The notes under the pieces are model-generated. The model saw only the letters and a program-made list of their open reading frames with translations, was not told the origin of the DNA and made no database searches. Shown piece after piece: positions 195-19,500 of a DNA stretch of 20,503 nt. The position numbers were made by a program, and so were the translations under genes. The DNA is taken from assembly GCA_043799675.1 (NCBI GenBank), contig JAZDNN010000015.1, forward strand, positions 1 to 20,503, in the 5' to 3' direction. This DNA is from Candidatus Aenigmatarchaeota archaeon (GTDB taxonomy: Archaea; Aenigmatarchaeota; Aenigmatarchaeia; Aenigmatarchaeales; JACQIB01). Each line of letters begins with the position of its first letter. The stretch's first letter is position 1.

Positions 195-232
195 ATGATA
201 TTACCCCGTCAACAAGAATGCGACGGGCAAAA
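195..232 (+). repeat. Dispersed semi-palindromic repeat, copy 1
   Basis: atgatattaccccgtc-aacaagaatgc-gacgggcaaaa, with a CCCGTC/GACGGG inverted repeat. Closely similar to the copy at 8893-8930. Confidence 0.8.
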
Positions 233-245
233 GAAAAGGAAAAGT

Positions 246-395
246 TTACTTGGCCTTGCCCATTATCCTGCAAACCTTGGTGCTGCAGTGCGGGCACTTG
301 CCTTCCATGGCCTTCATGCCGTTCTTCCAGGTTACTTCCTTGCCCTCGATCATTTCGACCTGTTTCTTGCAACGCATACAACGTCCCTCAACCAT
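246..395 (-). CDS. Small basic zinc-ribbon protein, DUF5679-like (49 aa)
   Basis: Manual translation: MVEGRCMRCKKQVEMIEGKEVTWKNGMKAMEGKCPHCSTKVCRIMGKAK*. Two CxxC pairs and the KNG/G-x-CP-x-C-x-TKV-x-RI pattern typical of DUF5679. GGGAG ribosome-binding site upstream. Below the ORF-track cutoff. Confidence 0.85.
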   Translation of the reverse strand: MVEGRCMRCKKQVEMIEGKEVTWKNGMKAMEGKCPHCSTKVCRIMGKAK

Positions 396-1056
396 TGTTA
401 TCAACTCCCATCGTCTTTCTTGGTATAGAGGAACCTACGTTCTTTAAAAACCTTTCTACGCCGCCCTTGTTGTATATGCCCAAAACATACAGGTTTTCTT
501 TGAAATTACAAACACGACCATCTATTACTGTCTGGTGCGGTTTTCGAAATGCTATCTTAGAACGTATCCCGTATGTCCTTTCCATGACACTCTTTATATT
601 TTCAAGTAGCTGTAGATTGGAATTCAACATTCTTACGCAATATGTAGTATAGGTTTTCTCGCCTTTCTTGGTAGTGAATTTTGTAAGAGAACCTTCACTA
701 TCATAAAAACCTTTTATAAAAGCATTAGGATGTGTTAAAGAAATGCGCGACAATTCTTCTGCGGTCAAATTGTAATACCATTCGTAGAATGCTTTCGACC
801 TCAGACAAATCTTGTAGAGCCCACTTTTGCAGTAAATTATCTTTACTGTTCTCGAAAAAACCTTTCCGAGACATCTGTTGAACTCTTCTAAAAACTTTTT
901 GTCCTTTACACAAAGTTGTATTATGTGCTCATGACCGTATGCTGTCTTCGTCTTGTATACACAACCGTCACCTTCCAGAACGCCCAGAATATAAGACAGC
1001 TCAAGGGACGGCTCCAAAAGAGGCTGCGGTGTATTGAACTGATTCGGTCTTTTCAC
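388..1056 (-). CDS. Free-standing two-motif LAGLIDADG homing endonuclease (intein-endonuclease-like)
   Basis: Motifs LSYILGVLEGDG and AFIKGFYDSEG with acidic catalytic residues intact. No Hint splicing domain. Visibly more AT-rich than flanking genes. Confidence 0.88.
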   Translation of the reverse strand: MKRPNQFNTPQPLLEPSLELSYILGVLEGDGCVYKTKTAYGHEHIIQLCVKDKKFLEEFNRCLGKVFSRTVKIIYCKSGLYKICLRSKAFYEWYYNLTAEELSRISLTHPNAFIKGFYDSEGSLTKFTTKKGEKTYTTYCVRMLNSNLQLLENIKSVMERTYGIRSKIAFRKPHQTVIDGRVCNFKENLYVLGIYNKGGVERFLKNVGSSIPRKTMGVDNNG

Positions 1057-1090
1057 GAACTATATTAAGTTTCCACATTAAAGCTTTTTC
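1057..1090. promoter_or_regulatory. Compact divergent promoter region (LAGLIDADG / tyw1)
   Basis: TATATTAA at 1061-1068 (+), ~22 nt before the tyw1 ATG. GAAAAAGC-TTTAAT on the minus strand (1090-1077), ~20 nt before the GTG at 1056. Confidence 0.55.
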
Positions 1091-2008
1091 ATGCTCACCC
1101 AGGACCAGCTCAGGCGCCTTCAGGCTGCCGATTACCGCATATTCGGCCCCAACAGGCATTCGGCGGTCAAGCTATGTCATTGGTGCAAGCAATCCATCAA
1201 AAGCGGCGGTGAGAAGCACTGCTACAAACAGAAATTTTACGGCATACGGTCCCACCGCTGCCTGCAGATGACCCCCTGCCTGCCCCTTTGCAACCTGCGC
1301 TGCTCCCATTGCTGGCGGGACCATTCTTATTTCAAATCAACTGCAGAGGGCCCCATGGACTCTGCAGCAATTGTAGCTGAGCAGTCCCTAGAAGCCCAGA
1401 AGAAGCTTTTGGTCGGCCTGGGCGGCGTGGACCATTCCGCCATTCATCTGAAAGAGGCAATGGAACCAACCAACGCCGCCATCAGCCTGGACGGCGAGCC
1501 CACCCTGTATCCTTACCTAGGCGACCTGATAACCGAATACAAGAAAAGGGGCATGACCGTCTTCCTTGTCACCAACGGCATGAGGCCGGATGTTCTTGCC
1601 TCTCTTGACACTCTGCCAACGCAGCTCTACGTCTCCGTTACCAGCCCCGACAAGGCGTTCTTCGACAGGACCCAGCATCCCGTTCCTCCCGCAGGCTGGG
1701 AAAAGCTCATGGAGACGCTTGAGCTGCTCCCTTCGTTGAAGTGCAGGACTGTGATCAGGCTGACACTTGCGAAAGATTTCAACATGGATGCCGTTCAAAA
1801 GTTTGCCAAACTGATTGCCAAGGCAAACCCGACATTCATCGAGCCCAAGGCGTTCATGCCCATCGGCGCATCCAGGAGCAGGCTCCCGTACGAGGCGATG
1901 CCAAGGCACGAGGAAATTGTTTCCTTTTCCGAAAGGCTTGCTTCAGAGACAGGCTACAAACTGGCGGACGAAAGCAGACCCAGCCGAGTGGTGCTCCTGA
2001 AGAAATGA
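1091..2008 (+). CDS. taw1: 4-demethylwyosine synthase Tyw1/Taw1 (radical SAM tRNA modification enzyme)
   Basis: HSAVKLCHW, CYKQKFYGIRSHRCLQMTP, CxxxCxxC (CNLRCSHCWR), AISLDGEPTLYP, FLVTNG, PTQLYVS, SRVVLL. Confidence 0.95.
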   Translation: MLTQDQLRRLQAADYRIFGPNRHSAVKLCHWCKQSIKSGGEKHCYKQKFYGIRSHRCLQMTPCLPLCNLRCSHCWRDHSYFKSTAEGPMDSAAIVAEQSLEAQKKLLVGLGGVDHSAIHLKEAMEPTNAAISLDGEPTLYPYLGDLITEYKKRGMTVFLVTNGMRPDVLASLDTLPTQLYVSVTSPDKAFFDRTQHPVPPAGWEKLMETLELLPSLKCRTVIRLTLAKDFNMDAVQKFAKLIAKANPTFIEPKAFMPIGASRSRLPYEAMPRHEEIVSFSERLASETGYKLADESRPSRVVLLKK

Positions 2009-2014
2009 TTTAAA
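2009..2014 (+). promoter_or_regulatory. TATA box of tRNA-Pro
   Basis: TTTAAA immediately after the tyw1 stop, 22 nt before the tRNA 5' end at 2037. Confidence 0.6.
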
Positions 2015-2036
2015 CTCCGTCAATGCAGAAAGCAAT

Positions 2037-2200
2037 GGGCTCGTAGTCTAGCTTCATGTGAAGTTCGCTTCGCATGCTAGTCTGGTAGGATTCCAGCTTG
2101 GGGACGACCTAAGCTCATTAGATCGCCGAAATGCTGGCGACCTGTGTTCAAATGAGCGCGGAGCGCCAAAAGCGCTTTGAGAATCACAGCGAGCCCACCA
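2037..2200 (+). tRNA. tRNA-Pro(GGG) with three introns: 2054-2082 (17/17a), 2104-2131 (37/38), 2153-2183 (59/60); CCA encoded
   Basis: Spliced 76-mer GGGCTCGTAGTCTAGCT|TGGTAGGATTCCAGCTTGGGG|TGCTGGCGACCTGTGTTCAAA|TCACAGCGAGCCCACCA folds into a cloverleaf. Each intron has a 4-bp central helix and 3-nt bulges: CTAG/CTAG, TTGG/CCGA, TTCA/TGAG. Confidence 0.92.
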
Positions 2201-2209
2201 ATCGCTGCT

Positions 2210-2623
2210 TCATGCCGGATTGATGCTGGCCACTTTCACGGTGAAAATCAGCGTCTTGCCCGCCAGCGGACTGCTTCCGCTTGTACCGTAGCCTTGCTCA
2301 GGAGAAACGGTAAATGTCTTCTCTTCCCCCGCTTTCATTCCCAGCACGCCGCTATCAAAGCCCGGGATGACCTGGCCCGAACCGACCGTAAATGTAAACA
2401 GCTGCTTGCCCACGTTGCTGTCCACCGTGCTTCCGTCCACGACCAGCGTGTAATAGACCGAAATCGTATCGCCTGTTTTGACCGCAGCGGCTGTCGGGTT
2501 CGCCTGCCCCACGCAGCCTGCAATCAGCAGCAACGGTACAACAAGCAGGATGATAGTTCCCCGATGCAAGAAACTGACGGGCAAAATTCTCCGGCATGCG
2601 GATGTGACGGGCAAAAGAATCAT
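2210..2623 (-). CDS. FKBP-type peptidyl-prolyl isomerase, putative lipoprotein (true start may be TTG at 2569)
   Basis: GDTISVYYTL..DG..VDSN, FTVGSGQVIPGFDSGVLGMKAGEEKTFTVSPEQGYG, PLAGKTLIFTVKV. Hydrophobic signal ending in lipobox LIAGC. Confidence 0.9.
   Translation of the reverse strand: MILLPVTSACRRILPVSFLHRGTIILLVVPLLLIAGCVGQANPTAAAVKTGDTISVYYTLVVDGSTVDSNVGKQLFTFTVGSGQVIPGFDSGVLGMKAGEEKTFTVSPEQGYGTSGSSPLAGKTLIFTVKVASINPA
2550..2616 (+). repeat. Dispersed repeat, tandem copies 2a (2550-2586) and 2b (2587-2616)
   Basis: atgatagttccccg-atgcaagaaact-gacgggcaaaa followed by ttctccg-gcatgcggatgt-gacgggcaaaa. Ends 3 nt from the rpoN stop. Confidence 0.75.
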
Positions 2624-2814
2624 CGCTTGAACTTCGCTATCTGCGGAAGGGTATCCACCTGCGTCAGGAGCGCGCTCCTGCAGCAGTAGTTTGTCACACC
2701 GAGGCTGTCAAGGACCGCCTTGCTGCTCTCGCCTTCCACCACCCGTTTCTTCAGCGTTTCCCAGTACTGCCCTATCGGGCGGCCGCAGGAAATGCAACGA
2801 ACCGGACACATCAC
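2620..2814 (-). CDS. rpoN: RNA polymerase subunit Rpo10 (N)
   Basis: (M)MCPVRCISCGRPIG...LDSLGVTNYCCRSALLT. Start GTG 2814 or ATG 2811, preceded by GGGGAGG. Confidence 0.95.
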   Translation of the reverse strand: MMCPVRCISCGRPIGQYWETLKKRVVEGESSKAVLDSLGVTNYCCRSALLTQVDTLPQIAKFKR

Positions 2815-2816
2815 TA

Positions 2817-3713
2817 TTATCCTTCCTCCCCAAGTTTCATTACTTCCTCTAGCAGACCAAGAGGTTTTAAAGCTAGCGCTTCGAGCAGCTGCCGCAGCCG
2901 CTGAACGCTGGGCTGGCGTTTGCCCCACTCGATGCGCTTAAGGTAATCATAACTGACGCCTGCTTTTTTTGCAAACTGACTGCGAGTTAAATCAAGCTGC
3001 TCGCGCTTGGCTACAAGTACATGACAGATAGCTGGCTCATCTGACAATAGCTTCAGCCAATCATCTTCGGTCGGCCATTTATCGCGGATGTAATGCAACC
3101 GCCTGCCGCGACCCTTGCGGCCGGTGATACAGCCAGAAATTTGATCAGGGGGTTCCAGACCTATCAGTTTAAAGAACCGTACTGCAGTACATCCTCGGCC
3201 AACTAATACAAAACTGCCATCCGTCTGTCGCTGTGGTGCAAAATCCAATTTCTTTTCACGTAATTTTGTTACAAGCAATTGAATATCGCTATATCGGAAA
3301 CAATTCGTTGCAAGTACAGGGTAGGGCTTGCGGTTGCCGCCATGACGGTTCATCGAACCGTCGCCTATGTACCAGTGTAACAACGCAACGGGTGTGAGAA
3401 ATAAATCCTTTGGAACAATCTTCTGAGTTTTGTCATCGCCATCCACGTACCATCCTTTCCGGAGGCCGAGAAGGCGCTCGTCCTTCGTTTTGTTGATGTA
3501 AAATCCGAATGCGAAACAGCCTGTGATATTATTGTCAACTCCAATGTAACTGTTAGTAATTCCGTTTTGTTCAAACTGCGACTTCAACCATCCGAGCAAC
3601 TGTTGATCTTTAGCGACGCATTTGTAGTAGAAATATTTGCCCTTCCATACACGTATATTCGCATCACCGAGCAACGTACCATCAATAATCTGCATTAAGT
3701 GCTCGCTAATCAC
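2817..3713 (-). CDS. Free-standing LAGLIDADG endonuclease with C-terminal XRE/Cro-type HTH
   Basis: QIIDGTLLGDA and KIVPKDL.LTPVALLHWYIGDGS motifs, LATNCF. C-terminal REQLDLTRSQFAKKAGVSYDYLKRIEWGKRQPSVQRLRQLLEAL. AT-richer than neighbours. Confidence 0.85.
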   Translation of the reverse strand: MISEHLMQIIDGTLLGDANIRVWKGKYFYYKCVAKDQQLLGWLKSQFEQNGITNSYIGVDNNITGCFAFGFYINKTKDERLLGLRKGWYVDGDDKTQKIVPKDLFLTPVALLHWYIGDGSMNRHGGNRKPYPVLATNCFRYSDIQLLVTKLREKKLDFAPQRQTDGSFVLVGRGCTAVRFFKLIGLEPPDQISGCITGRKGRGRRLHYIRDKWPTEDDWLKLLSDEPAICHVLVAKREQLDLTRSQFAKKAGVSYDYLKRIEWGKRQPSVQRLRQLLEALALKPLGLLEEVMKLGEEG

Positions 3714-3786
3714 GCGTTTATTTCTCTTGCTTACTTAAACGGTTAATGCGTCGCGGAGCTATACTCTAGAAAACATATTTACTAAC

Positions 3787-4260
3787 CTATCGCTTCGAGC
3801 GCTGTTTATGCCTACGGGGTCCAGTTTTTGACCGGCTGGGTTTGTGAGGTTCCGTCCTTCTGGGGTCGGAAACCAGCAGCGTCCTGTCATACGCAATGAA
3901 TATCGGTTTGAGCTTCCGGTCGAATCCGACGAGCACGTTTGCTATCGCGGTCCTTGCGGCATCCGCCTGCCCTATCGGCCCGCCGCCCGTGACGTTCACC
4001 TCTATGTCGACGCCTTTCGCGGCTTCCCCTGCGACAATCACGGGCTCCTGCATCTTGAGCCTGGCCATCTCCGGCTGGATGATTGCAAGCGGCCTTCCGT
4101 TGATCATTATTATTCCGCTTCCCGGCCTGGCAATCGCCCTTGCGACCGCCCTCTTCCTGGTTCCCAGAGTCTGTACGATCTTGACCTTCTTCTTCGACTG
4201 AACAGGCTCGGAAATTATTTCCCCGTCACCGATTGTCTGTTTGATGTTTTCCGCCATCAT
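3787..4260 (-). CDS. rps9: 30S ribosomal protein S9 (uS9)
   Basis: GTRKRAVARA, VNVTGGGPIGQADAARTAIA, YDRTLLVSDPRRTEPHK..GPR..KQRSKR. ATG at 4260 overlaps the L13 stop (ATGA). Confidence 0.95.
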   Translation of the reverse strand: MMAENIKQTIGDGEIISEPVQSKKKVKIVQTLGTRKRAVARAIARPGSGIIMINGRPLAIIQPEMARLKMQEPVIVAGEAAKGVDIEVNVTGGGPIGQADAARTAIANVLVGFDRKLKPIFIAYDRTLLVSDPRRTEPHKPSRSKTGPRRHKQRSKR

Positions 4261-4757
4261 GACGCATCTCCGCTCGTGCCGGACGGCCACCTTTCGCTCT
4301 TTGCCCCCAAGGATTTGCATATCTCGCCCAAGGTGGTCCATTTGCACGTGAGCTCATTGGCATTCTTCCCGAACTTCTGCGCCTTGCTCTTGAACTCGGG
4401 AGGAGTCCCGATGTAAGCGGTAAGCCTCTTGATTGCTTCCCTTCCCCTGACGTTTTCCGGAAGCATCCCCTCGATGACCCTCCTCAGCACCCTTTCCGGA
4501 TATCTCGGATAGAACGGTCCCTTGAACGGGTCCCCTCTCTGCCTCTTGTGAGCGAACCAGCGGCTGGTCCACCACGGGTCCCCGCTGATCGCTATCTTTT
4601 CGGTGTTCACAACGGTGATGTGGTCGCCCATCAGCAGCCTCTTCGCGAGCTTGGCTGCCAGTCTTCCGAGGACCGCCCCTTCCGCGTCGATCACTTCGGG
4701 TCCGAAAGCCATCCCGGTCTTCGGTATTTTTTTCAAAGGCAAAGGTCCTTTCATCAA
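4257..4757 (-). CDS. rpl13: 50S ribosomal protein L13 (uL13)
   Basis: IDAEGAVLGRLAAKLAKRLLMG, VVNTEKIAISG, GPFYPRYPERVLRRVIEGMLP. Confidence 0.95.
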   Translation of the reverse strand: MMKGPLPLKKIPKTGMAFGPEVIDAEGAVLGRLAAKLAKRLLMGDHITVVNTEKIAISGDPWWTSRWFAHKRQRGDPFKGPFYPRYPERVLRRVIEGMLPENVRGREAIKRLTAYIGTPPEFKSKAQKFGKNANELTCKWTTLGEICKSLGAKSERWPSGTSGDAS

Positions 4758-5119
4758 ATCATTATCCTGACGTCTTTTCCCGTCGGTTTTCTTTCCACCA
4801 GTTCGGGTATGCTCATCACCTTTCCGCCGGCCGCCTCTATCTTGTCCCTTGCGGCAGTGGAAAAGAATGCAGCCGCCACATTGACGGATTTTGTGATTGT
4901 CCCGCCGGCAAGCACCCTTCCCGGGACCACGATGGTGTCCCCTTTGACTGTGTTCCTGTCTATCTGCGACAGGTTCACTTCCGCCCTCTTCCTTTCCGTC
5001 CTTTCGAGAAGCTTTGCCAACCTGAGCAGGAAGCCGTCTTTCTCCTTGTGCCCCCTTTCCCTCAAGCCTGCTATGAGCTGTACAAGCAGCGGATTTGTCG
5101 GCCCCGTCGGATTAGGCAT
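4754..5119 (-). CDS. rpl18e: 50S ribosomal protein L18e (eL18)
   Basis: TNPLLVQLI..L, RAEVNLSQIDR, IVVPGRVLAGG, FSTAARDKIEAAGG. ATG 5119 lies ~22 nt after the TATA box TTTATAAA (5149-5142). Confidence 0.93.
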   Translation of the reverse strand: MPNPTGPTNPLLVQLIAGLRERGHKEKDGFLLRLAKLLERTERKRAEVNLSQIDRNTVKGDTIVVPGRVLAGGTITKSVNVAAAFFSTAARDKIEAAGGKVMSIPELVERKPTGKDVRIMI

Positions 5120-5179
5120 ACGCCTCAATCGCTGGCCACATTTTATAAATGGCGTTCCCGGGGCCGGAATCCGCCTTAA

Positions 5180-5734
5180 CTAGGGTTCCTTGTGAAGTTT
5201 CCGTATCCTTTCAATCCCGCCCAGCTTCCTGATGATACTTGCAACAGATTTGCCGGTCATGTGCTCCCATTTCCTGTTCTTTGCGATGGATTCCCTTATT
5301 CTCGTGGAAGAGATGGGACCCGTCCTCCTGAACCTGATTATCCTTTTCTTTCTACTCTTTGCCTCTTCCTCAATTGCCTTCTCCAGTTCCATCTTAAGCC
5401 CGGTCCTCTGCTCCTTGAGCTCGTGTGTCATGAAAATCACGTCGAACTTCGGCACGCTGTCCATGACGTGCCTGACCCCCTTCCCGAAGGGCATCTTCGG
5501 ATCCGGAAGGGCGAATATTCTCACCCTCTTCATGTCAATCCCCTCTTCCTTGAGGTAGGCTTCAAGCATCCGCTTCCTCTCGGCACCGCTGAACGGGTTG
5601 TCCTTCTCATATTTTCGCTCCGCAGAGCCGATAACGACTATCAGCCTGTCCACCTGAAGCAAGGCTTTCTTTATCACCCACATGTGCCCGGCGTGCGGGG
5701 GATTGACCCTTGCCCAGAAAAATCCCGTTGTCAT
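5180..5734 (-). CDS. NadM-like nucleotidyltransferase (HxGH superfamily; NMN adenylyltransferase-like)
   Basis: RVNPPHAGH, IVVIGSA, NPFSGAERKRML, ISSTRIRESI...WEHM. Start moved to ATG 5734 because the longer ORF overlaps tRNA-Leu. Confidence 0.8.
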   Translation of the reverse strand: MTTGFFWARVNPPHAGHMWVIKKALLQVDRLIVVIGSAERKYEKDNPFSGAERKRMLEAYLKEEGIDMKRVRIFALPDPKMPFGKGVRHVMDSVPKFDVIFMTHELKEQRTGLKMELEKAIEEEAKSRKKRIIRFRRTGPISSTRIRESIAKNRKWEHMTGKSVASIIRKLGGIERIRKLHKEP

Positions 5735-5798
5735 GGATGGTGCAGGTGCACCACTTGATTGCTTCACCAAAGGATGCTTTTTTCCAACTCTAATCATG

Positions 5799-5959
5799 TG
5801 GTGCGGGGGAAGTGATTTGAACACTCGTGGGGCCTTCGCCCACAGGATTTCTATCTTAAGGGTTCCTTGGATGTCAAGTCTTAAGTTTCGCACAGGCATC
5901 ATCCTGTCCTGCGCCTTTGGCCATGTGAAAACATTTGGACCTGGCTTGGCTACCCCCGC
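5799..5959 (-). tRNA. tRNA-Leu(TAA) with three introns: 5935-5917 (21/22), 5907-5887 (30/31), 5879-5849 (37/38); CCA encoded
   Basis: Spliced 90-mer GCGGGGGTAGCCAAGCCAGGTCCA|AGGCGCAGG|ACTTAAG|ATCCTGTGGGCGAAGGCCCCACGAGTGTTCAAATCACTTCCCCCGCACCA, with long variable arm and A73. Central helices GGTC/GGCC and CGCA/TGCG; the third is imperfect. TATA ATTAATAA at 5989-5982. Confidence 0.9.
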
Positions 5960-6023
5960 AAACAGAAAAGCGCAGCGGAACTTATTAATGAACTATATGA
6001 CTGCCGCAGCAGCAAAAGAATCG

Positions 6024-6057
6024 TATCGCTCCGTCAAAAGGGTGTGACGAGAAAAAA
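6024..6057 (+). repeat. Dispersed repeat, copy 3
   Basis: tatcgctccg-tcaaaagggtgt-gacgagaaaaaa. Shares aagggtgtgacgag (14 bp) exactly with the copy at 7088-7123. Overlaps the last codons and stop of the small membrane gene. Confidence 0.8.
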
Positions 6058-6249
6058 GACGCCTGCAACTATCATCAAGCAGCCTATCAGGACGAATGCC
6101 ATCCTCTTGTTGCGCGTGACCACAGCACCTTCCTTCGTACCGGCTTTCATGATCTGCCCGTAAGTGCCGAATTTCAGGTAATAAAGTAGCCGGGGTGAAA
6201 CCAGGAAGACTATGCCGACAATGATGAAAATTATGCCAATTACGTTCAC
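6034..6249 (-). CDS. Small membrane protein with two transmembrane helices (71 aa)
   Basis: Hydrophobic stretches VIGIIFIIVGIVFLVS and MAFVLIGCLMIVAGVFFLV. GTGA start/stop coupling with rpoD. Confidence 0.7.
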   Translation of the reverse strand: MNVIGIIFIIVGIVFLVSPRLLYYLKFGTYGQIMKAGTKEGAVVTRNKRMAFVLIGCLMIVAGVFFLVTPF

Positions 6250-7016
6250 AGTTTACCGACTTCCTTCCCGAAGTCCTTGGCCTTGTCCCTGAGGATTTCC
6301 ACGCTCTTTGCAAGGATTTCCTCGGCCTTCAGGCCCGAGATGCTTTCAATCGTGAATATTATCTTTGAAGCGCTGTTGGCTATTCTCGCCCCGTGGCCGA
6401 CTTCGCCCTTTACCTTGCACTTCCCGTCCTGGTATGCCTTCACGGGAAGGATGCCGCTCCCTTCCATCATCAATGCATGCTCCATGCAGGGTTCCACAAG
6501 GACCTTCCCTTCCTTGTCAACGATTGTCGGCCAGCCCATGTACCACGCCTTTGCCGCCTGCCACTTGGCATGCTCATCACCGGTCCCGAGCCTGGCAGTC
6601 ATTTCCACCTTGAATTTCTCGTCCTTGGCGAGCTCTATCAACGGGATGTCCTCCAGCAAAGGTTTCGCCACTTCCGCGTCCGCGCTCTTCATGTCCTTGC
6701 TGTACACCGTGCACGGTCCCTTCTTGTCTATTACAAACACTATCTGGCAGTTCGAGCATCCCTTCCCTTCGCAGTCGCATTCCCCCTTCTTCGAGAAGTT
6801 CTTGGCGTCGAACCAGAGCGGGACCAGACCCAGCCTGTGAGCGACCACCTCATCATACATTGCGCTGTCGTTGGAATAGAAATCAACGCTCTCGACCGCA
6901 AGCACGGGGACCTCGGTCATCGCTATCCTTCTGAGGGCATTCGCAAACTGCGGACTTGTCTCGTCCATGATAACCTTGAACCTGTTACCTTTCCGTTCAA
7001 CCACATCTATGTGCAT
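6246..7016 (-). CDS. rpoD: RNA polymerase subunit Rpo3 (D)
   Basis: FANALRRIAMTEVPVLAVE, NDSAMYDEVVAHRLGLVPL, CDCEGKGCSNC, ARLGTGDEHAKWQ, IFTIESISGL. Confidence 0.96.
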   Translation of the reverse strand: MHIDVVERKGNRFKVIMDETSPQFANALRRIAMTEVPVLAVESVDFYSNDSAMYDEVVAHRLGLVPLWFDAKNFSKKGECDCEGKGCSNCQIVFVIDKKGPCTVYSKDMKSADAEVAKPLLEDIPLIELAKDEKFKVEMTARLGTGDEHAKWQAAKAWYMGWPTIVDKEGKVLVEPCMEHALMMEGSGILPVKAYQDGKCKVKGEVGHGARIANSASKIIFTIESISGLKAEEILAKSVEILRDKAKDFGKEVGKL

Positions 7017-7039
7017 CGCTTAAGCCTCCTATCCGATTG

Positions 7040-7047
7040 TTTATAAA
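7040..7047 (-). promoter_or_regulatory. Internal TATA box upstream of rpoD
   Basis: TTTATAAA 23 nt before the rpoD ATG. A GGAGG ribosome-binding site is also present at 7029-7025. Confidence 0.6.
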
Positions 7048-7048
7048 C

Positions 7049-7123
7049 ATTATATTTCCCCGTTCCACGGGTCTGACGGGCAATCCGTATATTGCTCCGT
7101 CCTCAAGGGTGTGACGAGCAAAA
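7049..7123 (+). repeat. Dispersed repeat, tandem copies 4a (7049-7084) and 4b (7088-7123)
   Basis: attatatttccccg-ttccacgggtct-gacgggcaat and tatattgctccg-tcctcaagggtgt-gacgagcaaaa, between the S11 stop and the rpoD promoter. Confidence 0.8.
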
Positions 7124-7140
7124 GGTTTCCGGAAAACCTT
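7120..7140 (-). terminator. Hairpin with U-tract directly after rps11
   Basis: Minus strand AAGGTTTTCCGGAAACCTTTT. Confidence 0.4.
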
Positions 7141-7537
7141 AAACGCGCCTGCCCCTTCTCCCGCCTTTTTTTCTGCATGTGTCGTGAGGGACAGGGGTAA
7201 CATCTTCTATGGTCCCTATTCGCATGCCCGCCCTTGCCAGCGCCCTTATCGCCGGCTGTGCCCCCGCTCCGGGCTGCCTGCTCTTGATCCCGCCCGGTGC
7301 CCTGACCCTGATGTGAATGCCGTTGATTCCCTTGGCAAGCGAGGTCTCGGCGGCCTTGAACGCCGCCTGCATCGCCGGGAACGCGCTGCCCCCTTCCCTG
7401 TCCTTGTCGGTCATCTGACCGGCTGTTACTCTCGCTATGGTCTCTCCGCCCGTCATGTCCGTGATGTGTATGATGGTATTGTTGCCCGAGCTGAAGATGT
7501 GCGCTATGCCCCATCTGACCTGTCTCGGTTCAGGCAC
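7139..7537 (-). CDS. rps11: 30S ribosomal protein S11 (uS11)
   Basis: [57 protein letters not shown]. Confidence 0.97.
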
Positions 7538-8086
7538 TTAGACGCCCTCCTTCTTCGGCTGCTCGACCGGTGCCGGCTGGGCGGGCTTTTCCTTGTGCCC
7601 GGCCGCCCACTCCTTTGCCGCCTTGAACTTGCTCTTTGGGGCGTAGGCGAGCTTTGAATCCTCGACCGTTGGCATCAGTGTTGACGGCCACTTCACCTTC
7701 TTCCCGTCGACGGCTATGTGACCGTGAATTATGAGCTGTCTCGCCTGCTTCGCTGAGGTCGCGAAACCCTTCCTCAGGATTACGGTCTGCAGCCTCCTCT
7801 CCATCAGGTTCTCCACCTTGAGCTTGAGAACGTCCTCCAGTCCGGCCCCCTCGCGGAGAAGCCCGAGCTTGACCAGCCTGTCCAGCAGGATTTTCTCCTT
7901 CTCCGGATCTCTCTTGCCACGCAGGTCCCGCGCCCTTGTCCTCCATTCGGACAGCATCCCTTCCGCCCGCCAGATTTCCTTCTTCCTTCTGAGCCCGTAA
8001 TTGAGCAGCAGCACCTTTTCCTTCTCCAGCCTCTCGCGATTCCAAGGCTTGAGCGGGGTTGAGAATTTTGCGACCTGTTTCTTCAT
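7538..8086 (-). CDS. rps4: 30S ribosomal protein S4 (uS4)
   Basis: [47 protein letters not shown]. Confidence 0.96.
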
Positions 8087-8097
8087 CTATAGCACCT

Positions 8098-8790
8098 TTA
8101 TTTCTTTTCCTCTTTCTTCGCCGGAACTGCAGCGACCTTTCCTGCCGGAGCTGCTCCCTTCACCGGCGCTGCTGCGGCTCCGGGTTTGGCCGCCCCCGCC
8201 GCAGGCGCTCCTGCCGCCGGTGCCGCTCCCGCGGCCGGCTTGGCTCCCTTGGACGCCTCAATTAATTTTGACCTTGTGACTCCGGCAGTCATTCCCGTCC
8301 TGAAGCTGCTCCTCGTGCGCTGCCCCCTCACCGGAAGGCCGAGCTCGTGCCTCACTCCCTTGTATGAATGTATTTTCTTCATGCCGTCTATGTCGAACCT
8401 GTGCGTCATCATGAGCGTTGAAGAAACGATGTGCCTCGTGCCTCCTTCCGTCGGGTCCGCCCTCCTGTCCAGCATATGGGGCGGCATTCCGACCGACGCC
8501 GGGTTCCGTATGGCGGCCTCAAGCCTGGCGAGCTGCTCGTCGTTGAGGCTTCCGATGACGATGTTGGCGTCCATCCCGACCGCCTTTGGCAGCGCCGCGG
8601 CGAGCGTGTGGCCGACGCCCCTTATCTTGAGCAAAGCGGCCCTCAGTTTCCTGGTCCCGTCAAGGTCGGTTTCCACTATTCGCACTATTCCGCGTATGCC
8701 TGCCGGCACTATCTTCTTCTTTGCCTCCGGCCTCTTTTGCTCCGTCTTGGCCTTCGAGTCCCTGGACTCTTTTTCGTAGACCTTTTGCAC
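8098..8790 (-). CDS. rps13: 30S ribosomal protein S13 (uS13) with Ala/Pro/Gly/Lys-rich tail
   Basis: IVRIVETDLDG, ALLKIRGVG, SYKGVRHELGLPVRGQRTRSSFR. TATA TTTATAAG at 8819-8812. Confidence 0.96.
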   Translation of the reverse strand: MQKVYEKESRDSKAKTEQKRPEAKKKIVPAGIRGIVRIVETDLDGTRKLRAALLKIRGVGHTLAAALPKAVGMDANIVIGSLNDEQLARLEAAIRNPASVGMPPHMLDRRADPTEGGTRHIVSSTLMMTHRFDIDGMKKIHSYKGVRHELGLPVRGQRTRSSFRTGMTAGVTRSKLIEASKGAKPAAGAAPAAGAPAAGAAKPGAAAAPVKGAAPAGKVAAVPAKKEEKK

Positions 8791-8857
8791 GCCCAGCTAT
8801 CGATTACAACCCTTATAAATAATGTATAATTGGGACGCCGGATGCGATAATAAATTC

Positions 8858-8930
8858 ATGTTTCTCCGGCACAGAAATGTGACGGGGAAAACATGATATT
8901 TCTCCGTTCACAAGGATACGACGGGGAAAA
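8858..8930 (+). repeat. Dispersed repeat, tandem copies 5a (8858-8891) and 5b (8893-8930)
   Basis: atgtttctccg-gcacagaaatgt-gacggggaaaa and atgatatttctccg-ttcacaaggatac-gacggggaaaa. Ends 2 nt from the stop at 8933. Confidence 0.85.
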
Positions 8931-8932
8931 CG

Positions 8933-9574
8933 CTATTTCTGATTCACTTTCTCCGAGACGGCGCCGGCAAACATGGGCGCGTAAAGGTGGGCGGCGCTGA
9001 TTGTGGACCTGCTTTCGACCTTCCACACGAGGTTACCGTTCCTGCAGATGACATATGCCCAGTCCCCCTGGACCGGGAACGGTTTCAGTATTCCGCTGCA
9101 GCCTTCAATATTCTTTACGGACAGTTCGGTGTAGTTTCCGGTGGCCGCCTTGTCCCACAGGCTCTGGCGGAACGATTCCGCATTCTTGGTGTCATTGAAT
9201 AGCCAGGCATAAGAAAATACGGTGCTGACTTCCCCGCTGTTCTCGTTTTTCTGGCTTAACGTGACATAACCGCTTATGAATCCGGTAGCATCCTCGGTCT
9301 GGTTCATCTTCTGGGCTATGAACCATCCGGTCGGCAGGTCCTCCCCGCTCAGCACGAATGCCGCGGTAGGCCCGCTGTAATTCGGTCCTGTCAGCTTCTC
9401 ACCGAAAGCGAACATGCCTCCGCCCACCGCCGCTATGACAATGATGGCAGCCAGCGCCATTTTCCATCCCTTCTTCCTTTCGGGGACCGGTCCGCTCGGC
9501 ATTTCCGGCGGCCCCTGCGGGACTCCCGGAGGCATCTCAGGGATGTCGGGCTGCATCGGCGCTTCTTCTGGCAT
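8933..9574 (-). CDS. Single-pass membrane protein with Pro-rich N-terminus and extracellular domain
   Basis: MPEEAPMQPDIPEMPPGVPQGPPEMP..., RKK followed by TM ALAAIIVIAAVGGGMFAF, then LSGEDLPTGW and N-x-S/T sequons. Start set to ATG 9574 because the longer ORF overlaps tRNA-Ser. Confidence 0.75.
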   Translation of the reverse strand: MPEEAPMQPDIPEMPPGVPQGPPEMPSGPVPERKKGWKMALAAIIVIAAVGGGMFAFGEKLTGPNYSGPTAAFVLSGEDLPTGWFIAQKMNQTEDATGFISGYVTLSQKNENSGEVSTVFSYAWLFNDTKNAESFRQSLWDKAATGNYTELSVKNIEGCSGILKPFPVQGDWAYVICRNGNLVWKVESRSTISAAHLYAPMFAGAVSEKVNQK

Positions 9575-9632
9575 GCCACAACAGACATGCCAAAGGATAA
9601 AAACGCAGCAGATTCCGTTCGGCCTTTCAAAA

Positions 9633-9808
9633 TGGCGCCGCCGGCAGGACTTTCGCGCAAGCGAAGGTGCGTGAAGCGCCTTCACTGCATTCGAACCTGC
9701 GCGCCTCTTGCGAGGCACCAGATACCCTGGCTTATTTCTCAAGTCTGGCGCGTTGAACCTTTGAAGGAGAATTTGGCTGCCCAAAATCTCAAGCTTCGCT
9801 ACAGCGGC
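9633..9808 (-). tRNA. tRNA-Ser(TGA) with three introns: 9791-9761 (17/17a), 9737-9724 (37/38), 9689-9650 (59/60); CCA encoded
   Basis: Spliced 91-mer GCCGCTGTAGCGAAGCT|AGGTTCAACGCGCCAGACTTGAG|ATCTGGTGCCTCGCAAGAGGCGCGCAGGTTCGAA|TCCTGCCGGCGGCGCCA, with long variable arm and G73. Central helices GAAG/CTTC, CTTG/CAGG, TTCG/CGAA. TATA TTTTAAA at 9836-9830. Confidence 0.92.
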
Positions 9809-10617: not shown

Positions 10618-11211
10618 TTATACCTTTACCAAGTCGTTCAGTTCCGCTTTTGCTTCGGCTGATAATAACGTCCTCCTTCCACCATAATGATCCTTGTTTA
10701 TCTCAAGCACACGCTGCACAACAATCGCCTGCTCTCTTTTCACCACAAGAGAACCTGCGATTTGTGGAAGCAATTTCAGTAGTGGTCTCGACGAGAGTTC
10801 GTACATCCACATAGGCTTGTATTTGCCCTGTCTTTTGTTGAATGAAATGTGCCCAGAGCCTACCACGGATGCAATTTTGTATACAAGTTCTTTATTGGTA
10901 TTTCCTATCATGAGTCGTGGATGGTAGCCGACCGATTTTTCAGTCCGTATCATATGCAATGTCAGCGTACCTTCGCCATCAATGAGTCCGCACAACCAAC
11001 CTTTCTCGAAGTCGGATAGTATTCTGCATACGGTATCAATCTTGGTCAAACCCAAGCCGTATGCCTTTGTATAGATGCCGTGCATGCTGTGTTTCGGGAG
11101 CAGTTTTACGAGTTCTGCGCAATTCCTACTCTTGTGGGTCCGCTTCAATATTTCAACTTCGTCCTGAGTCCATTTTGAAAAGGTCTTCGGTGCTCTCACA
11201 ACTAACAACAT
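10618..11211 (-). CDS. Free-standing single-motif LAGLIDADG endonuclease with N-terminal Myb/HTH-like segment
   Basis: KWTQDEVEILK...LVKLLPKHSMHGIYTKAYGLGL, then EKGWLCGLIDGEG, YHPRLMIGNT, LLPQIAGSLVVKREQA. AT-richer than neighbours. Confidence 0.82.
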   Translation of the reverse strand: MLLVVRAPKTFSKWTQDEVEILKRTHKSRNCAELVKLLPKHSMHGIYTKAYGLGLTKIDTVCRILSDFEKGWLCGLIDGEGTLTLHMIRTEKSVGYHPRLMIGNTNKELVYKIASVVGSGHISFNKRQGKYKPMWMYELSSRPLLKLLPQIAGSLVVKREQAIVVQRVLEINKDHYGGRRTLLSAEAKAELNDLVKV

Positions 11212-13518: not shown

Positions 13519-16500
13519 TCAAGCCATCGTAGCTATGAACGTCACCGTGCTCGTCTTCGCACCCGAGGGCTCGCTGTTCGGGACCGCGATCGCTATCTCG
13601 GTCTCAATCTGGTCGGTCGCGTTCAACCAGTCGAGGAAGCAGATGAACTGTGGAGGTGTTCCGCCCGAGACAGGCATGTAGAACCAGCTTGTGTTGGTGC
13701 AGAGGGTGTTGTAGGTCGTGCCTTCGGTGCTGGTGTTCGCCGCGGCCCTGTAAGCTGAGCTTGGGTTGGGGCTGATTGTGAACATGTTGGTGGCATTGAT
13801 GGTTATGTTCGCCTTGATATTGCCGTCGTTCCTTATCTCGAACGGCAGGGGTTTGTCATCCGCAGTGTCATTGACGGTACCGGTTGACATGTTGCCGAAG
13901 GCGACCGTGTCCGTTGTGAGTGTTATCAGGATGCTGGACTGTACAGTGAACGTGCTGACGCTTGTCGCGTTCTTCCCTCCGTCCGAATTATTCGCATGTA
14001 TTTTCCAGCCGACCACGGTGTTTCCGGCCACGGAATCGTTGAACCAAGTGATGTTGGACCAGGTTCCCGCACCGAATGCTGTAGCCGTCTGGTTCCTCCA
14101 AGTACCGGATTCGTTGGTCTCAAGCCAGTAGTAGTTCAGGCTTGTGGCGTTGGTGCTCCAGTTGGCATACAGCTTGACTCCTGACCAAGCCGACGGTGTC
14201 GTGGTGTTTGAACCGGCAAGGTCCGAGAAAATGTAAGTAGCCGCCTGGCTCTGCACTATGCTCACCGTCGGCTCCGGATAGATGTACTTGCGGACGCGGA
14301 AATCGTCCCACCACGTCTGGCCGGCGTTGCTGCCCCACAATCCCGCCTTCGTGCTTGTCGTGAGGTTCGAATTATAGCCCGTCATGGACGTCCCGTTGAC
14401 GTTGAGCGTGAAGTTGCTTCCCGACACCGAGAGCCCCTCATAATAGTAGTTGTTCGCACCCAGCGTCTTGGCTGTCGATACGTTGTATGCTCCCGATACG
14501 GAGTTCAGCGTACCGAAGATGCCGATTATGTCTCCGGGGTAGTTCAGGTATGACGCGAAGAAATTGCTCTGGTTGGCATACCTGAAGTTGTATCCCGCCT
14601 GGCCGCTGTCCGCAGTCCGCCCGACGGTGCCTTCAATCGTATAGTTGTCAGATATCCCTATGTTGGCGTAGAGCGTGTCATTTACGCCGCTGCTCGTAAG
14701 CTTCCCCCTGTATGAGCCGCCCGTAAGTTCGATGGTCCATGAGCCGTTCCCGGCGGTCCATTTGCTATTATCCACAGTAAGGTTACCGTTCTTGGTTATT
14801 CCGACCTGCCTGCCTCCGTGCGTCTGGTTCGGGCCGCCGTCATAGAGCAGCGTCAGGACGCCGTTCTCATATATCAAACCGGCAACTCCTATTGAACCGG
14901 AATCCCAACCGGAAGTTGATCTGTTTATTATGCTACCCTGATACGTCCATGAACTCAGGTCCGCGCTGGCGTTCCTGTAAAGGAAATTCGCATCCGTATG
15001 TTCTCCCGTATAATTGATATGGTTCGTTACCATGTAATAATTATTGTCAATTGCCTTGATTATCTTGGGATTTTCCTCCCATGTCAGGGTTCCGGATGCC
15101 AGGCCGGCATACGTCCAGTGGAAAAGGTCCGTTGATTTGAAATACACTATCCTGACTATGGTCGGGTCGGAGCCGCCACAAAACAAAAGCCACTGGGATG
15201 AATTGGACGGGTCGCGCAGCAGTTCGTCGCATATGACGTGATAGGAATATGGCGTTCCCGCCGTGGGCACTATGACGGGGTTTCCGGCATACTGGACCCA
15301 TGAAGAAATGTTGGAGACGTTGGTCGTGGTTGCCATTTCCACCCAATATGCCGGCTTGGGTGCATTGTAAGTCGCGGCATCGGTCGTGGTGTTGGAACCC
15401 ATGTAGTACATGTAGTAAGTGCCGTTATACTTGAACACGTACGCCGAACTTCTGGTCAGACTGTTCCACGGAGCGCTCGAGAAGTTCTGTGTAACCAATC
15501 CCATTCTCGTCCAGTTATACAGGTCGGTGGAAGTCGCCATCGATTCGTACCACTCGTCGCCGGACACGGTTCCCTCCGAAGTGTAGAACATGGTGTAGGT
15601 GCCGTTTTCCTGGAACGTCTTCTCGTAGGTGACGTTGTCAATTATCTGCAATATGTCGACTTCCCGTATGCCGCGGTTGTCATACGGGGCGCCCGGGTAA
15701 GTGATGTTCATCACCGGGTTACTTGCATATCTGCTGAAATGCGTGACGTTCAATGATGTATCGGACGCCCCTTGGAAATCGTCAAAGAAGATGAAGGTCG
15801 CATTCCCGCTGCTCACGTTTTCCGCAAGCATGTTGCCGTAATACATGGTTATGTATGTGGTCGTGTTCGCCCAGATGAGCGGGACCTTGACAACGAAGGT
15901 CGTCGTCGGGGAATTGCATGTGCCGCTCCACAGCCAGTGAGACAGCAGGCCGTAGGTGCTGTTCACGAACCTTGCATCAAGGCAGCTCGTATTCATCTGC
16001 CCCGCGGATATCAGCGTCGCCGTATCGATGCTCACGTTGACCTGGTAATCAGTGAGATTCACCGGGAGACTGTTTGAAATGGATATGTTTTTCTGGTAGG
16101 TATAATTGCTGTTCCACCAGCTTGTCACGGTGACCTGCCTTTCCGATGAGTACACAGAATCAGTTGAGTTGTATGCCCTGCATCTGATGTTATAGGTGTT
16201 CAGGTCGTGCGCGGTGACGGTCTCGCTCCGCTGGGTGTTGTTCAGGACGTTCGTTTCGGGGTTCGTCACGAGGGTGATGTTCCATGTCCCCGAGGTCGGG
16301 ATCGCGGTCCAGCCGAAGGTCGAAGAGTTGTATTCGTATGATATGTTATTCCCGGTCGAGGCCCCATTCGTTATTGCGGTGCATGCAATCGTGAATGTGC
16401 TGCCGGGGTACGTGATGGTATCCGTCGCTGGTTGGTCAAGGCTGACCGAATAGACCGTTGGCGACCCTATGTAAAAGACGGCCCCTGTCTCCGTGTCATT

Positions 16501-19500
16501 CGCCGTGCCACCGCTGTAGGAGGTCGCGTTGGCCAAAACGAACAGGTTCTTTGCGCCGCTGAGCCCGACGGGCACGGTGCAGGCAACACTCCATGTTCCT
16601 GTAGCTGAATCATACGTTGCATATGTTCCCTCCTCCGCGCCCGTTGTACTGGCGGGCTCTGTCCCGTACCATTTGCGCACAAAAATCCAGTCGGTTGTCA
16701 TGTTGCCGCTGCCCCACGAACTTGGGTCGCCTACTGACTGATAATACCGGAGCCCTGTACTGTTTATGTTTTCAGCGAATACGGTTGAAAAGATGCTATA
16801 GGTATCGTTATAGAAATACCATGTTATGTTGGTTGCATTGATTTTTTGCACTTCATGCGTCCATAACCCCGAAGGCATATAATAACCGGTTCCCGCACCG
16901 CCGACAAATATTTGCCGATTATCGAACACGCCGTAGTCGGTCGGGACATCCGCGCCATGCGCCTTGGACCTGATTCTCATGTCCGGAATGATACCGGTAA
17001 ACATTACCCTCCGTTCTATGCTTATGTTCGGTGCGAACGTTTTTGTGCTATTAATCTGATGGAACGCTCCGCCCGCCGAATATTGATTAAGCAGGCCGTC
17101 TGATACCGTTGCAACAGAGGTATTGTTTGAAATAACCACCCATTTGGCATGGTCAATGCCACCAGTGGTATTGTAAAGACTGTTATTGTAAGAACCGCCG
17201 TCATAAATCTGTGGGTTGTCCAGGATGTATCTTAGAGTTCCCATGGGTGATTCCAGGTTGGTATCGAATCCCTGGCTGCCGTTCTTTGCCCAGTATTCCA
17301 CGTCGGGGTTCGTGCTGTTCGAGAGCTGGAGCGTCAGGTTGTATGCAAGGCTCGCGTTCTTGACGGCCAGTGTGGTCAGTATCCAGTCGTTGCCGAAGCT
17401 CCAGTAACCGTCGTCGTAGGTCGAAAAGAGTGGCGTGGACCAGTTGTTCGGGGTCTGCAGCACGAACCCTTTGTAGGTTATGGAATTGAAATTATTCGCG
17501 AGGTAATCCTCGATGTATGACGCCTGCGACGCGTTCGCGACGCCGAGATGGACAGCAAAGGCGCTTCCCACGATGTCCGTCAGGTTGTTCGCGCCGTCCG
17601 CCGCGTGGAACATGTTGTCCGTGTCGTTCCACAGCCTGGATATGTTGCCCCTCACGTTGTTTGCCGCGTTCGTGAAGTAGGTATAGTTTTGACTGTCCCC
17701 GCTTATGTTCAGCAGATAGGCCATGTCAACCGAGGCCTTGTAATACATCAGGGACCCCAGCAGGTTGTTCCCTGTGTTCAGTACACCGTCCCTGAAACCG
17801 AACGGCACCCAGGGGCTGGCTGGGGCCACATAGACCAGGCCGGTCGTCGAGTTCATCTGGACCGTCTTGAGGGCGTTTATCAGCTTGACCCTGTAGCCGG
17901 TGTTGAACACGCTTATGTCCCCTGTCTTGTTGTAATACAATCTCGCCAATTGCGGCATCAGGAATTGCGCATCGCCCCCTGCATGGAGATGCCAAGAATC
18001 GTATCCCGAATAGTAACTGGCGGCGGCACCGTTCGTGGCCAAGGATATCGGCATTTCCCCGCCAGCATTTGCGGCATTCATAAATTTGCTGATAGTATTG
18101 TTAACATGAGAAGCATTGAAATATTCGGGATAGCCGATCATAGTCAGACCGATGTCCGCGGCGTATGCGAAAACGTAGCCCGGTGCAGCCTGCCAGTAAT
18201 CCGTCCCGTCCGTAAAAGTGGTGTGGTCTAATGAAATCACGTTGTCCGCAGCCGCCCTTACGTTGTTGTAAATGGTCTGGTTTTCGCTGTAAATAAAACT
18301 GTTGAAATCATCAAACAGTATGAAAGTATCGTTGCCGCTGCTTCCGTATGCATGGCTCATGTTTCCGTAATACATCACTAGGTTTTCGGTCCCTGCCGCG
18401 GGGATGTTCGGCACTTCGACCCATATCCTGGTGCCGGTCGTGTTACAGCCGGACTCTATCCAATGATCGATCTCCGCGTTTGACGAGTTGAAAAATCTTA
18501 TATCACCGCAATCGGAGCGCATCTTTCCCGCCGCGATGAGGGCAGAAGTGTTGACTGTAATATTGACCTGATAGTTCGTCAGTGCGAAGCCCAAGCTGTT
18601 TGTGATGGTCGTTCTTTGCAGATAGGTACCTCCGCTGCCGGAGCTCTGCAGCTGGCAGGTCTGCCCGCCGACCGTAATGTTGGTCACGCTGACGCCGCTC
18701 GTGACATTTGTCCCGTCCCTCGTGAAGGTGTAGTTGACGGTGATGTTCTGCCCGTCCGTAACCGAAACGGGATTCCCCTGGGTCGGATACGTGATGTTCA
18801 GTGTAAATGTATGGGGGTTTACAACGACCTGCCTTGTTAAGGAGTAGACCGATGTCGTCGAGCTGTTTGCATTGCAGCGGATGTTGTAAGTGTTCGCCGT
18901 CCTCGTCGTGACCGTTTCGTTCTGCTGGCTGTTGTTCTGGACGTCCGTTTCGGGGTTCGTCACGACGGTGAGATTTGCGGTTCCCGAGGTCGGAATCTTG
19001 GTCCAACCGAAGGTCGACGAGTTGTATTCGTATGTGATGTTGACTCCGGCCGCTGCGCCGCTGGTATTTGCCGTGCATGCCATCGTGAACGTGCTGTCGA
19101 CATACGTGTTCAAATTCGTCGTAGGCTGGTCAAGACTGACCGAATAGGCCTCCACTCCCTTGACCGTGACCTGCTGGGTCGCGGAGTAAACGGATGCCGA
19201 CGAGTTGTACAGCTTGCACCTGACGTTGTACGTACCCTGCAAATTTCCGGTGACATTTTCGGATTTCATGATTCCGTTCAGGACGTCGGCCTTGGGGTTC
19301 GCCGATATGGTGATGTTCTGCCCGCCGGCCGTTTCAATCGCCTTCCATGCCATCGTTGACGAGTTGTATTCATATGAAATGTTGACTCCTATGGTGGCCC
19401 CACCGGTGGTCGGGGTGCAGTTCATGCTGAACGTCTGGCTTCCGAATATGCTGGGGTCGGAAGTGGGGGCGTTCAGGGCGACCGAAATCACGTTCGGAGT

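Follow-up and report, generated by a model that had tools for sequence, protein, structure and literature searches.

What are the short palindromic repeats that recur at the gene junctions of a ribosomal protein and RNA polymerase cluster in Candidatus Aenigmatarchaeota archaeon: a signal by which the host ends or protects its transcripts, or DNA that multiplies within its genome? The question is raised by a stretch of 20,503 nucleotides (nt) (GenBank assembly GCA_043799675.1, contig JAZDNN010000015.1; the whole stretch analysed is hereafter called the window), which is contig C12 of a 748,753-bp bin (G000) of 45 contigs, with a completeness of 83% and a contamination of 0.08%. We consider the repeats to be, with a probability of roughly 0.6, lineage-specific small hairpin repeats of the kind represented by repetitive extragenic palindromes (REPs) and Rickettsia palindromic elements (RPEs), that is, DNA multiplying within the genome and not an ancestral control system. 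This reading is drawn from the restriction of the family to one lineage, the turnover of its sites and copies, the tandem arrays, the assembly breaks associated with them and the copies lying in frame within genes.

The unit is 37–38 nt long and its consensus on the usual gene-sense strand is nnTTTTGCTCGTCAnnTTCTTGnnAACGGAGnAATATCATnn, in which four T residues (T4) are followed by GCYCGTCA-YR, a UUCU loop, UG-UGAACGGRGC and finally AATATCAT.

A repeat family spread within one lineage, with apparent ongoing turnover

Iterated nhmmer searches, with a profile built on genome-wide seeds, were used for the copy census and gave 44 copies (43 distinct sequences) at 27 loci on 16 contigs of the genome, one locus being present twice, at the ends of contigs C2 and C8; a covariance model retrieves 43 non-overlapping matches. 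As the copies are related by descent, statistical tests that treat them as independent overstate their independence. Twelve of the 27 loci hold head-to-tail arrays of 2–5 units each, with start-to-start spacings of 38–40 nt in the five-unit array on contig C17, and no array of mixed orientation was found.

The four largest contigs, which make up 38% of the bases, contain no copies, and seven of the 27 loci are no more than 250 nt from the end of a contig, against an expectation of 0.81. Variable repeats tend to coincide with assembly breaks, and we conclude that the repeats themselves have broken the assembly, so that the true copy number of the genome probably exceeds 44. A bin composed of two organisms was considered as the cause of the patchy distribution and rejected, given that tetranucleotide composition does not distinguish contigs with copies from those lacking them and that contamination amounts to 0.08%.

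In the window, nhmmer recovers all eight copies that the original prediction had placed at five loci on one strand (195–232, 2550–2586, 2587–2616, 6024–6056, 7049–7083, 7089–7123, 8856–8891 and 8893–8930), and a repeat search groups them into three families. The anticipated enrichment over shuffled DNA is present as well: a strict form of the motif, CGTC-N11-14-CGGRGNNAT, has five window matches against 0.05 expected, and none of 100 shuffles reaches five. The copies do lie near or across minus-strand stop codons, with the T4 end at 13, 3, overlapping, 15 and 2 nt at the five loci, while what had been described as a variable spacer proves to be the inner stem and the 4-nt loop. The copies, with extents as finally assigned, are as follows.

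195–232, minus strand: copy 1, T4 end 13 nt past the stop of the DUF5679 gene (246–404); nhmmer E=6e-9, covariance model score 51 bits
2550–2586, minus strand: copy 2, second unit of a two-unit array behind rpoN; nhmmer E=1e-5
2587–2616, minus strand: copy 3, first unit of that array, T4 end 3 nt past the rpoN stop (2620); nhmmer E=0.006, the weakest
5997–6019, minus strand: decayed mini-variant TTTTGCTGCTGCGGCAGTCATAT; a full copy aligns at the same place in related contig L146
6020–6056, minus strand: copy 4, overlapping the stop and supplying the last codons of a small open reading frame (ORF) at 6034–6249; nhmmer E=1e-5
7049–7085, minus strand: copy 5, second unit, ending about 33 nt before the rpoD start and abutting a TTTATAA box; nhmmer E=1e-6
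7086–7123, minus strand: copy 6, first unit, T4 end 15 nt past the rps11 stop; nhmmer E=2e-9; no counterpart in L146
8855–8891, minus strand: copy 7, second unit; nhmmer E=2.5e-6
8893–8930, minus strand: copy 8, first unit, T4 end 2 nt past the stop of ORF 8933–9784; nhmmer E=1.4e-9, covariance model score 47.7 bits

The housekeeping genes on the minus strand of the window are the DUF5679 gene, rpoN, rps9, rpl13, rpl18e, rpoD, rps11, rps4 and rps13; ORF 8933–9784 matches no Pfam family. Copy 1 is identical to its ortholog in contig L094 at 37 of 38 positions, and copy 5 corresponds to the single copy of L146 (28 of 38 positions identical, with a paired C-G to U-A change). Copies 2 and 3 (2550–2616) lie within the 5' end of the listed FKBP lipoprotein ORF (2210–2623), and copy 2 carries a 17-nt deletion in a variant seen in thin contigs (depth 2–7) from four DNA runs; copy 3 is without the ATATCAT tail. 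The small ORF ended by copy 4 (71 aa, membrane-like, after rpoD) has no counterpart in syntenic L146, where two copies stand directly behind rpoD. The 23-nt mini-variant has the same ends as the full unit and is also found on contigs C5, C18, C21, C41 and C42, its leading string TTTTGCTGCTGCGGC occurring six times in the genome. Elsewhere in the window, a giant ORF (13519–20502; over 2,327 aa) with internal repeats of 80–240 nt (64–86% identity) runs off the window.

Beyond this genome, the covariance model gave no matches in 40 relatives (six of the same family and 34 of the same order), and a pattern scan of 185,579 species genomes (one per species) returned only 45 single matches in unrelated bacteria, which we read as chance, as we do two single pattern matches in viral contigs. 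No such hairpin was seen at the rps11–rpoD junction in the 12 relatives' loci inspected, where the genes are overlapping or Shine-Dalgarno-coupled, or are separated by a short stop–TATA–start spacer. A further 43 copies were found in 19 metagenome contigs from one sediment series, which are syntenic with the genome and 65–98% identical to it. Sites common to both follow the genes for DUF5679, rps11, rpoD, prolyl-tRNA synthetase (ProRS), eRF1, methionine aminopeptidase (MAP) and Spt4, and at such shared sites copy number varies, being two against one at rps11 and one plus a mini-copy against two at rpoD (genome against L146).

Occupancy varies too. In L121 a stop codon is followed at 2 nt by two copies for which contig C35 has no counterpart, and the three copies of L081 likewise have none in C35, although the left flanks of the two are 97.8% identical. 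Within a single genus-level lineage the family has come to occupy many sites and continues to turn over, with arrays growing and shrinking head-to-tail and sites being occupied or empty among related populations. In the alignment of L081 (1–1717) with C35 (1564–3190), identity is 97.8% on one side of the three inserted units and 70% on the other, the change falling exactly at the units; this reflects a recombination breakpoint or else a chimeric join made there in assembly.

About six of the 44 genome copies are clearly intragenic. The methionyl-tRNA synthetase (MetRS) gene on contig C15 contains three copies in one frame, read as IARHASGTEK, IARLASGTEK and IGRHTLGGGQ; compared with four relatives' enzymes, the first two are clearly inserted, and they lie outside residues 39–505, the part aligning to solved MetRS structures, and the third falls in a variable linker. 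Three reversed copies, read as DMAP... repeats, occupy the linker of a zinc-ribbon protein of 252 aa (contig C23); about 66 aa of this protein correspond to about 8 aa in its G004 ortholog, which is thus shorter there by about 58 aa. In related contig L081, three units (36, 36 and 37 nt) stand in gene sense and with intact T4 before motif I of an MTS-type methyltransferase whose frame remains open, and the ortholog in the present genome is of normal length. Such in-frame intragenic copies match the behaviour of RPEs as described in a review (PMC10969869). Judged from these positions, the repeat persists only in places that tolerate an insertion, either in the gap between a stop and the next promoter or start or, with an open frame, in protein ends, linkers and loops, where it would be translated.

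A second, unrelated palindromic repeat, GCCC..AGGGAACCTAGGTTCCCTT..GGG followed by TTATTCCTC, was observed on contigs C3, C4, C11, C14, C16, C29 and C35 (e.g., C16:52150–52200), mostly on contigs without the first family; its core occurs 10 times, with several occurrences starting at a stop codon or about 12 nt after it.

Folding of the unit

The unit can form a hairpin with a stem of about 12 pairs, two one-base bulges in the 3' arm and a 4-nt loop; it has a pseudo-palindromic core centred on 4 bp, and its arms share a conserved one-base asymmetry. Mean folding energy is −8.1 kcal/mol for the T4-first strand and −7.3 kcal/mol for the other strand, against −4.6 kcal/mol for shuffles, and in the consensus structure 76.6% of the cells pair, against 33–54% when the partners are slid. 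Double changes occur at two pairs (C-G 38, U-A 2 and G-C 1 at the first; U-A 23 and C-G 13 at the second). Covariation beyond the consensus was absent, as chimeras joining the left and right arms of different copies fold as well as native copies do (−8.3 against −8.0 kcal/mol); the pairing potential is consequently a property of the consensus, and covariation offers no independent proof of a selected fold. On the T4-first strand, G-U cells number 55 and A-C cells 24 over the 12 pairs, an excess that points modestly to this strand as the folding one, in the form of RNA or single-stranded DNA; 31 of the 55 G-U cells are supplied by the two loop-closing pairs, the remainder being 24 against 19. 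Inferring the folding strand from the T/G and C/A combinations of one stem pair was also attempted and rejected, as a bulge shift rescues the pair on both strands.

These figures bear on the idea that the unit would serve as an RNA hairpin in the 3' untranslated region, shielding the upstream mRNA from 3'-to-5' decay or marking a processing site, as for some bacterial REPs. A hairpin is possible in either orientation, the G-U excess is of the sort expected for folding RNA or single-stranded DNA, the exosome subunit Rrp4 is encoded and the copies stand at the ends of highly used genes. The concentration of the G-U excess in the loop-closing pairs and the equal folding of chimeras nevertheless speak against it, and intragenic copies cannot have such a role. 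We regard it as improbable.

The same unit could alternatively be a double-stranded DNA site for a lineage-specific protein, whether a dimeric regulator, the target of a recombination enzyme or homing endonuclease, or a roadblock, with cutting or binding driving gene conversion and changes in copy number. The 4-bp-centred core, the conservation of the arms without extra covariation, a genome rich in LAGLIDADG genes (three in the window) and the fall in identity exactly at the units inserted in L081 would all fit such a site. Yet the copies have no linked candidate protein, L094 lacks the LAGLIDADG gene at 388–1056 although it retains the nearby repeat, the one-base arm asymmetry and the G-U excess suit a folded single strand better, and the L081 drop could equally reflect a chimeric assembly. 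We hold this to be very unlikely, and the least probable of the explanations weighed here.

As regards the LAGLIDADG genes themselves, the three in the window are free-standing low-GC ORFs located between housekeeping genes (388–1056; 2817–3713, also with HTH_3; and 10618–11211), and the first is missing from L094 and from a run-X2 contig (the DNA-run contigs being thin, with a depth of 2–7), which indicates an insertion polymorphism. The eRF1 gene (C18, 2123–4846) contains an intein with LAGLIDADG and HTH domains, the site spanning about 1.5 kb against about 12 nt in L099, where the intein appears to be absent.

Position at gene ends and the case for a host function

Gene calls beyond the window were made with a simple codon-usage caller and key loci were verified with Pfam. 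On this basis the 27 loci are placed as follows.

T4 end 0–15 nt after the stop of a co-oriented ORF: 15 loci
Reversed: 3 loci
Inside ORFs: 4 loci
Divergent promoter region before ProRS: 1 locus
Contig ends, or an ambiguous upstream gene before EF-2: 4 loci

The co-oriented loci follow the genes for rps11, rpoN, ProRS, Kae1, eRF1, SecY, Spt4, a DRG-type GTPase, a WD40 protein and others, whereas the reversed ones are found after PolB and after methionine aminopeptidase, both with the stop codon overlapped by the ATGATAT end, and between SBDS and Rrp4. Among new loci in related populations, four are co-oriented and five reversed, four of the latter abutting or overlapping the stop at −4 to 0 nt. 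Orientation is therefore biased by 15 to 3 in the genome and is not a rule. The positional bias expected of further copies was found genome-wide, and the claim that all copies share one orientation is valid for the window, where it results from all flanking genes being on the minus strand, but fails for three of the 18 judgeable loci of the genome.

Where two genes stand in tandem, the second gene's TATA-like box or start codon is met 0–35 nt after the repeat, which thus fills nearly the whole intergenic gap (the AT-rich TATA-like boxes after the window copies were read by eye from the sequence). Units adjoin the adk start behind secY, and those behind rpoN run into the 5' end of the FKBP ORF. 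T4 opens 22 of 26 blocks, the four exceptions being three blocks inside ORFs and one after another copy; T4 follows the final unit in only seven of the 26. Across the genome, 23% of genes have a T4 in the 30 nt behind their stop and 18% an A4; for T5 and A5 the corresponding shares are 7.7% and 7.6%. T-tracts are thus barely enriched after stops, and generic U-tract terminators seem to be scarce.

These observations raise the possibility that the repeat is a dedicated boundary between transcription units, in which T4 would act as a U-tract terminator, the hairpin or a bound protein would pause or block RNA polymerase, and stacked U4 tracts would act through aCPSF1. The constancy of the opening T4, its end lying 0–15 nt after a co-oriented stop in 15 of 18 judgeable loci, the frequent TATA-like box of the next gene directly after the repeat and the scarcity of generic terminators would all agree with this, as would the better conservation of first copies than of synonymous sites and a beta-CASP nuclease homolog encoded in contig C1. 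Work on Methanococcus maripaludis shows that aCPSF1 binds U4 tracts and that termination becomes more efficient as these tracts increase in number (PMC8716108). Against such a boundary, three gene-sense copies with intact T4 lie inside the open methyltransferase ORF, no room for a separate promoter is left at adk or at the FKBP ORF, three loci of the genome and five of the nine new loci of related populations are reversed, the four largest contigs have no copies, the last unit is rarely followed by T4 and relatives have no such element. A dedicated terminator or insulator is thereby made less likely, particularly by the gene-sense copies in an open ORF, the lack of promoter room, the reversed copies and the relatives without the element, and we consider it unlikely. 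The only match to the aCPSF1 model in the genome is at C1:17345–18589 (model positions 175–629, 285 bits, below the cut-off), in a 420-aa frame in which the N-terminal KH part was not seen.

Of the interpretations initially offered, that of an archaeal REP-like element has gained ground through the restriction to one lineage, the variable copy number and occupancy and the in-frame copies, whereas terminator, insulator, activator and dimeric protein site have lost it, for the reasons just given and because no hairpin is seen at the rps11–rpoD junction in the 12 relatives' loci inspected.

Several points nevertheless count against a multiplying repeat. No mobilising enzyme was found in this 83% complete genome (no match for PF01797 and only sub-threshold ones for PF07282), and the one clean pair of an occupied and an empty site (L121/C35) shows no target-site duplication. 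In 12 of 13 comparisons, the similarity between orthologous copies exceeds that at third codon positions of the gene beside them, e.g., 0.97 against 0.84, 0.77 against 0.61 after ProRS and 0.84 against 0.49 after the MAP gene, which implies constraint or concerted evolution and not free decay; this could reflect either purifying selection in place or concerted evolution toward the family consensus. The T4 that opens 22 of 26 blocks and its facing the upstream stop in 15 of 18 judgeable loci would fit a host function too, and copies follow housekeeping genes (rps11, rpoD, rpoN, ProRS, eRF1, SecY, Spt4, Kae1 and the DRG-type GTPase).

If the repeats are nonetheless REP/RPE-like DNA, they may have spread via a single-stranded hairpin intermediate, by some enzyme or repair route, and arrays may have arisen by slippage or unequal exchange. 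Intergenic copies would be transcribed together with the upstream gene, and in the common orientation would provide a U4 tract and a stable 3' hairpin, with which the transcript may be more readily ended or protected, whether incidentally or through secondary co-option. A secondary 3'-end role of this kind, as U-tract terminator or 3' hairpin, is possible in view of the constant T4 in first copies, the orientation bias, the conservation of copies and the precedent for U4 tracts and aCPSF1 in Methanococcus (PMC8716108). A stronger version of the idea, which we hold to be doubtful, would have a self-propagating, portable gene-end module of U4 and hairpin colonising housekeeping 3' ends and being kept by selection because it sets transcript ends; it would have spread without a transposase, e.g., by single-strand hairpin intermediates or endonuclease-triggered repair, and copies landing in genes would have become new peptide segments. 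Were this version true, an RPE-like process that turns in-gene copies into peptide segments would operate in Archaea, in an ultra-small host the genes of which are mostly without U-tract terminators.

DPANN genomes are usually viewed as streamlined and repeat-poor. The present family means that small palindromic repeats invading gene ends and coding sequence do occur in DPANN archaea (Aenigmatarchaeota), provides a marker of the lineage, explains the fragmentation of the bin at housekeeping loci and serves as a warning to annotators, since ORF ends may be extended or altered by it. Should transcripts indeed be ended or stabilised by the units, these would offer a rare case of a mobile 3'-end signal in Archaea, on which the U4-tract/aCPSF1 model could readily be tested.

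Comparison with known systems

As had been supposed, the repeat belongs to no known Rfam family, with no window match at the gathering score and none at E<=1 in three loci that together comprise 13 copies. The linked RAYT (Y1 transposase) for which a search had been suggested was not found, there being no PF01797 match at E<=1 in the 83% complete genome; for TnpB, only sub-threshold PF07282 matches were obtained, and other transposase families were not searched. As regards miniature inverted-repeat transposable elements, no target-site duplication is visible in the L121/C35 pair and no TnpB above the cut-off was found. The arrays are not CRISPR arrays, since the units abut with start-to-start distances of about 30–40 nt and have no spacers, nor do they resemble bacterial intrinsic terminators, as the hairpin is followed by AAUAUCAU and not by a U-tract. 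With regard to REP hallmarks, the GTAG tag is absent, CGTC is present in the paired stem and not at an unpaired end, and no inverted dimers (BIME/REPIN) exist, all 12 arrays being head-to-tail.

C/D box small RNAs, CRISPR repeats, archaeal selenocysteine insertion (SECIS) elements and bulge–helix–bulge introns were also weighed by inspection of the sequence and rejected, as neither boxes C/D nor spacers nor 3-nt bulges are present and none of the upstream genes requires recoding. A link with tRNA introns was discarded as well, since ARAGORN, which handles multi-intron tRNAs poorly, places no tRNA within 150 nt of the copies. Sequences resembling tRNAs split by several introns were observed in the window at about 2040–2200 and 5760–5960, where ARAGORN found no tRNA.

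Among archaeal signals, the U-tract terminators served by aCPSF1 (FttA) have a U4 tract right after the gene, as here, where the arrays provide several such tracts. They need no hairpin, however, and do not form a repeat family, whereas here the hairpin follows the U4 tract (PMC8716108). The SPRITE and BOX elements of Streptococcus pneumoniae are similarly small, mobile intergenic repeats with terminator-like hairpins, but they are bacterial and larger, and have the hairpin before the U-tract, as in intrinsic terminators (PMC10969869). RPEs are palindromic, lie in frame in unrelated housekeeping genes and are translated at tolerated protein positions, like the copies described here; they measure about 150 bp against our 37–38 nt, and no sequence likeness was found, the two having been compared by description only (PMC10969869).

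The closest resemblance in many respects is to the REP/BIME/REPIN elements of Proteobacteria (GTAG and CGTC superfamilies), which are imperfect palindromes of 20–40 nt present in tens of copies, mostly downstream of ORFs and no more than about 20 nt from stops, in some cases intragenic, and specific to a species or lineage, with CGTC families likewise lacking a dedicated transposase (PMC3733652). Published accounts of bacterial REPs describe units no further than 15–20 nt from stop codons, units inside genes and families that have no transposase (PMC3733652, PMC12306157, PMC10969869). Unlike REPs, the present family has two stem bulges, CGTC within the stem, no RAYT found and an archaeal host, and is arranged head-to-tail only, whereas REPs mostly form inverted (head-to-head or tail-to-tail) dimers and head-to-tail dimers are rare (PMC3733652). 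The literature searched, available in part, contained no report of such a repeat family for DPANN archaea, and the family is best read as a new REP/RPE-like hairpin repeat, the first found for DPANN archaea within that literature.

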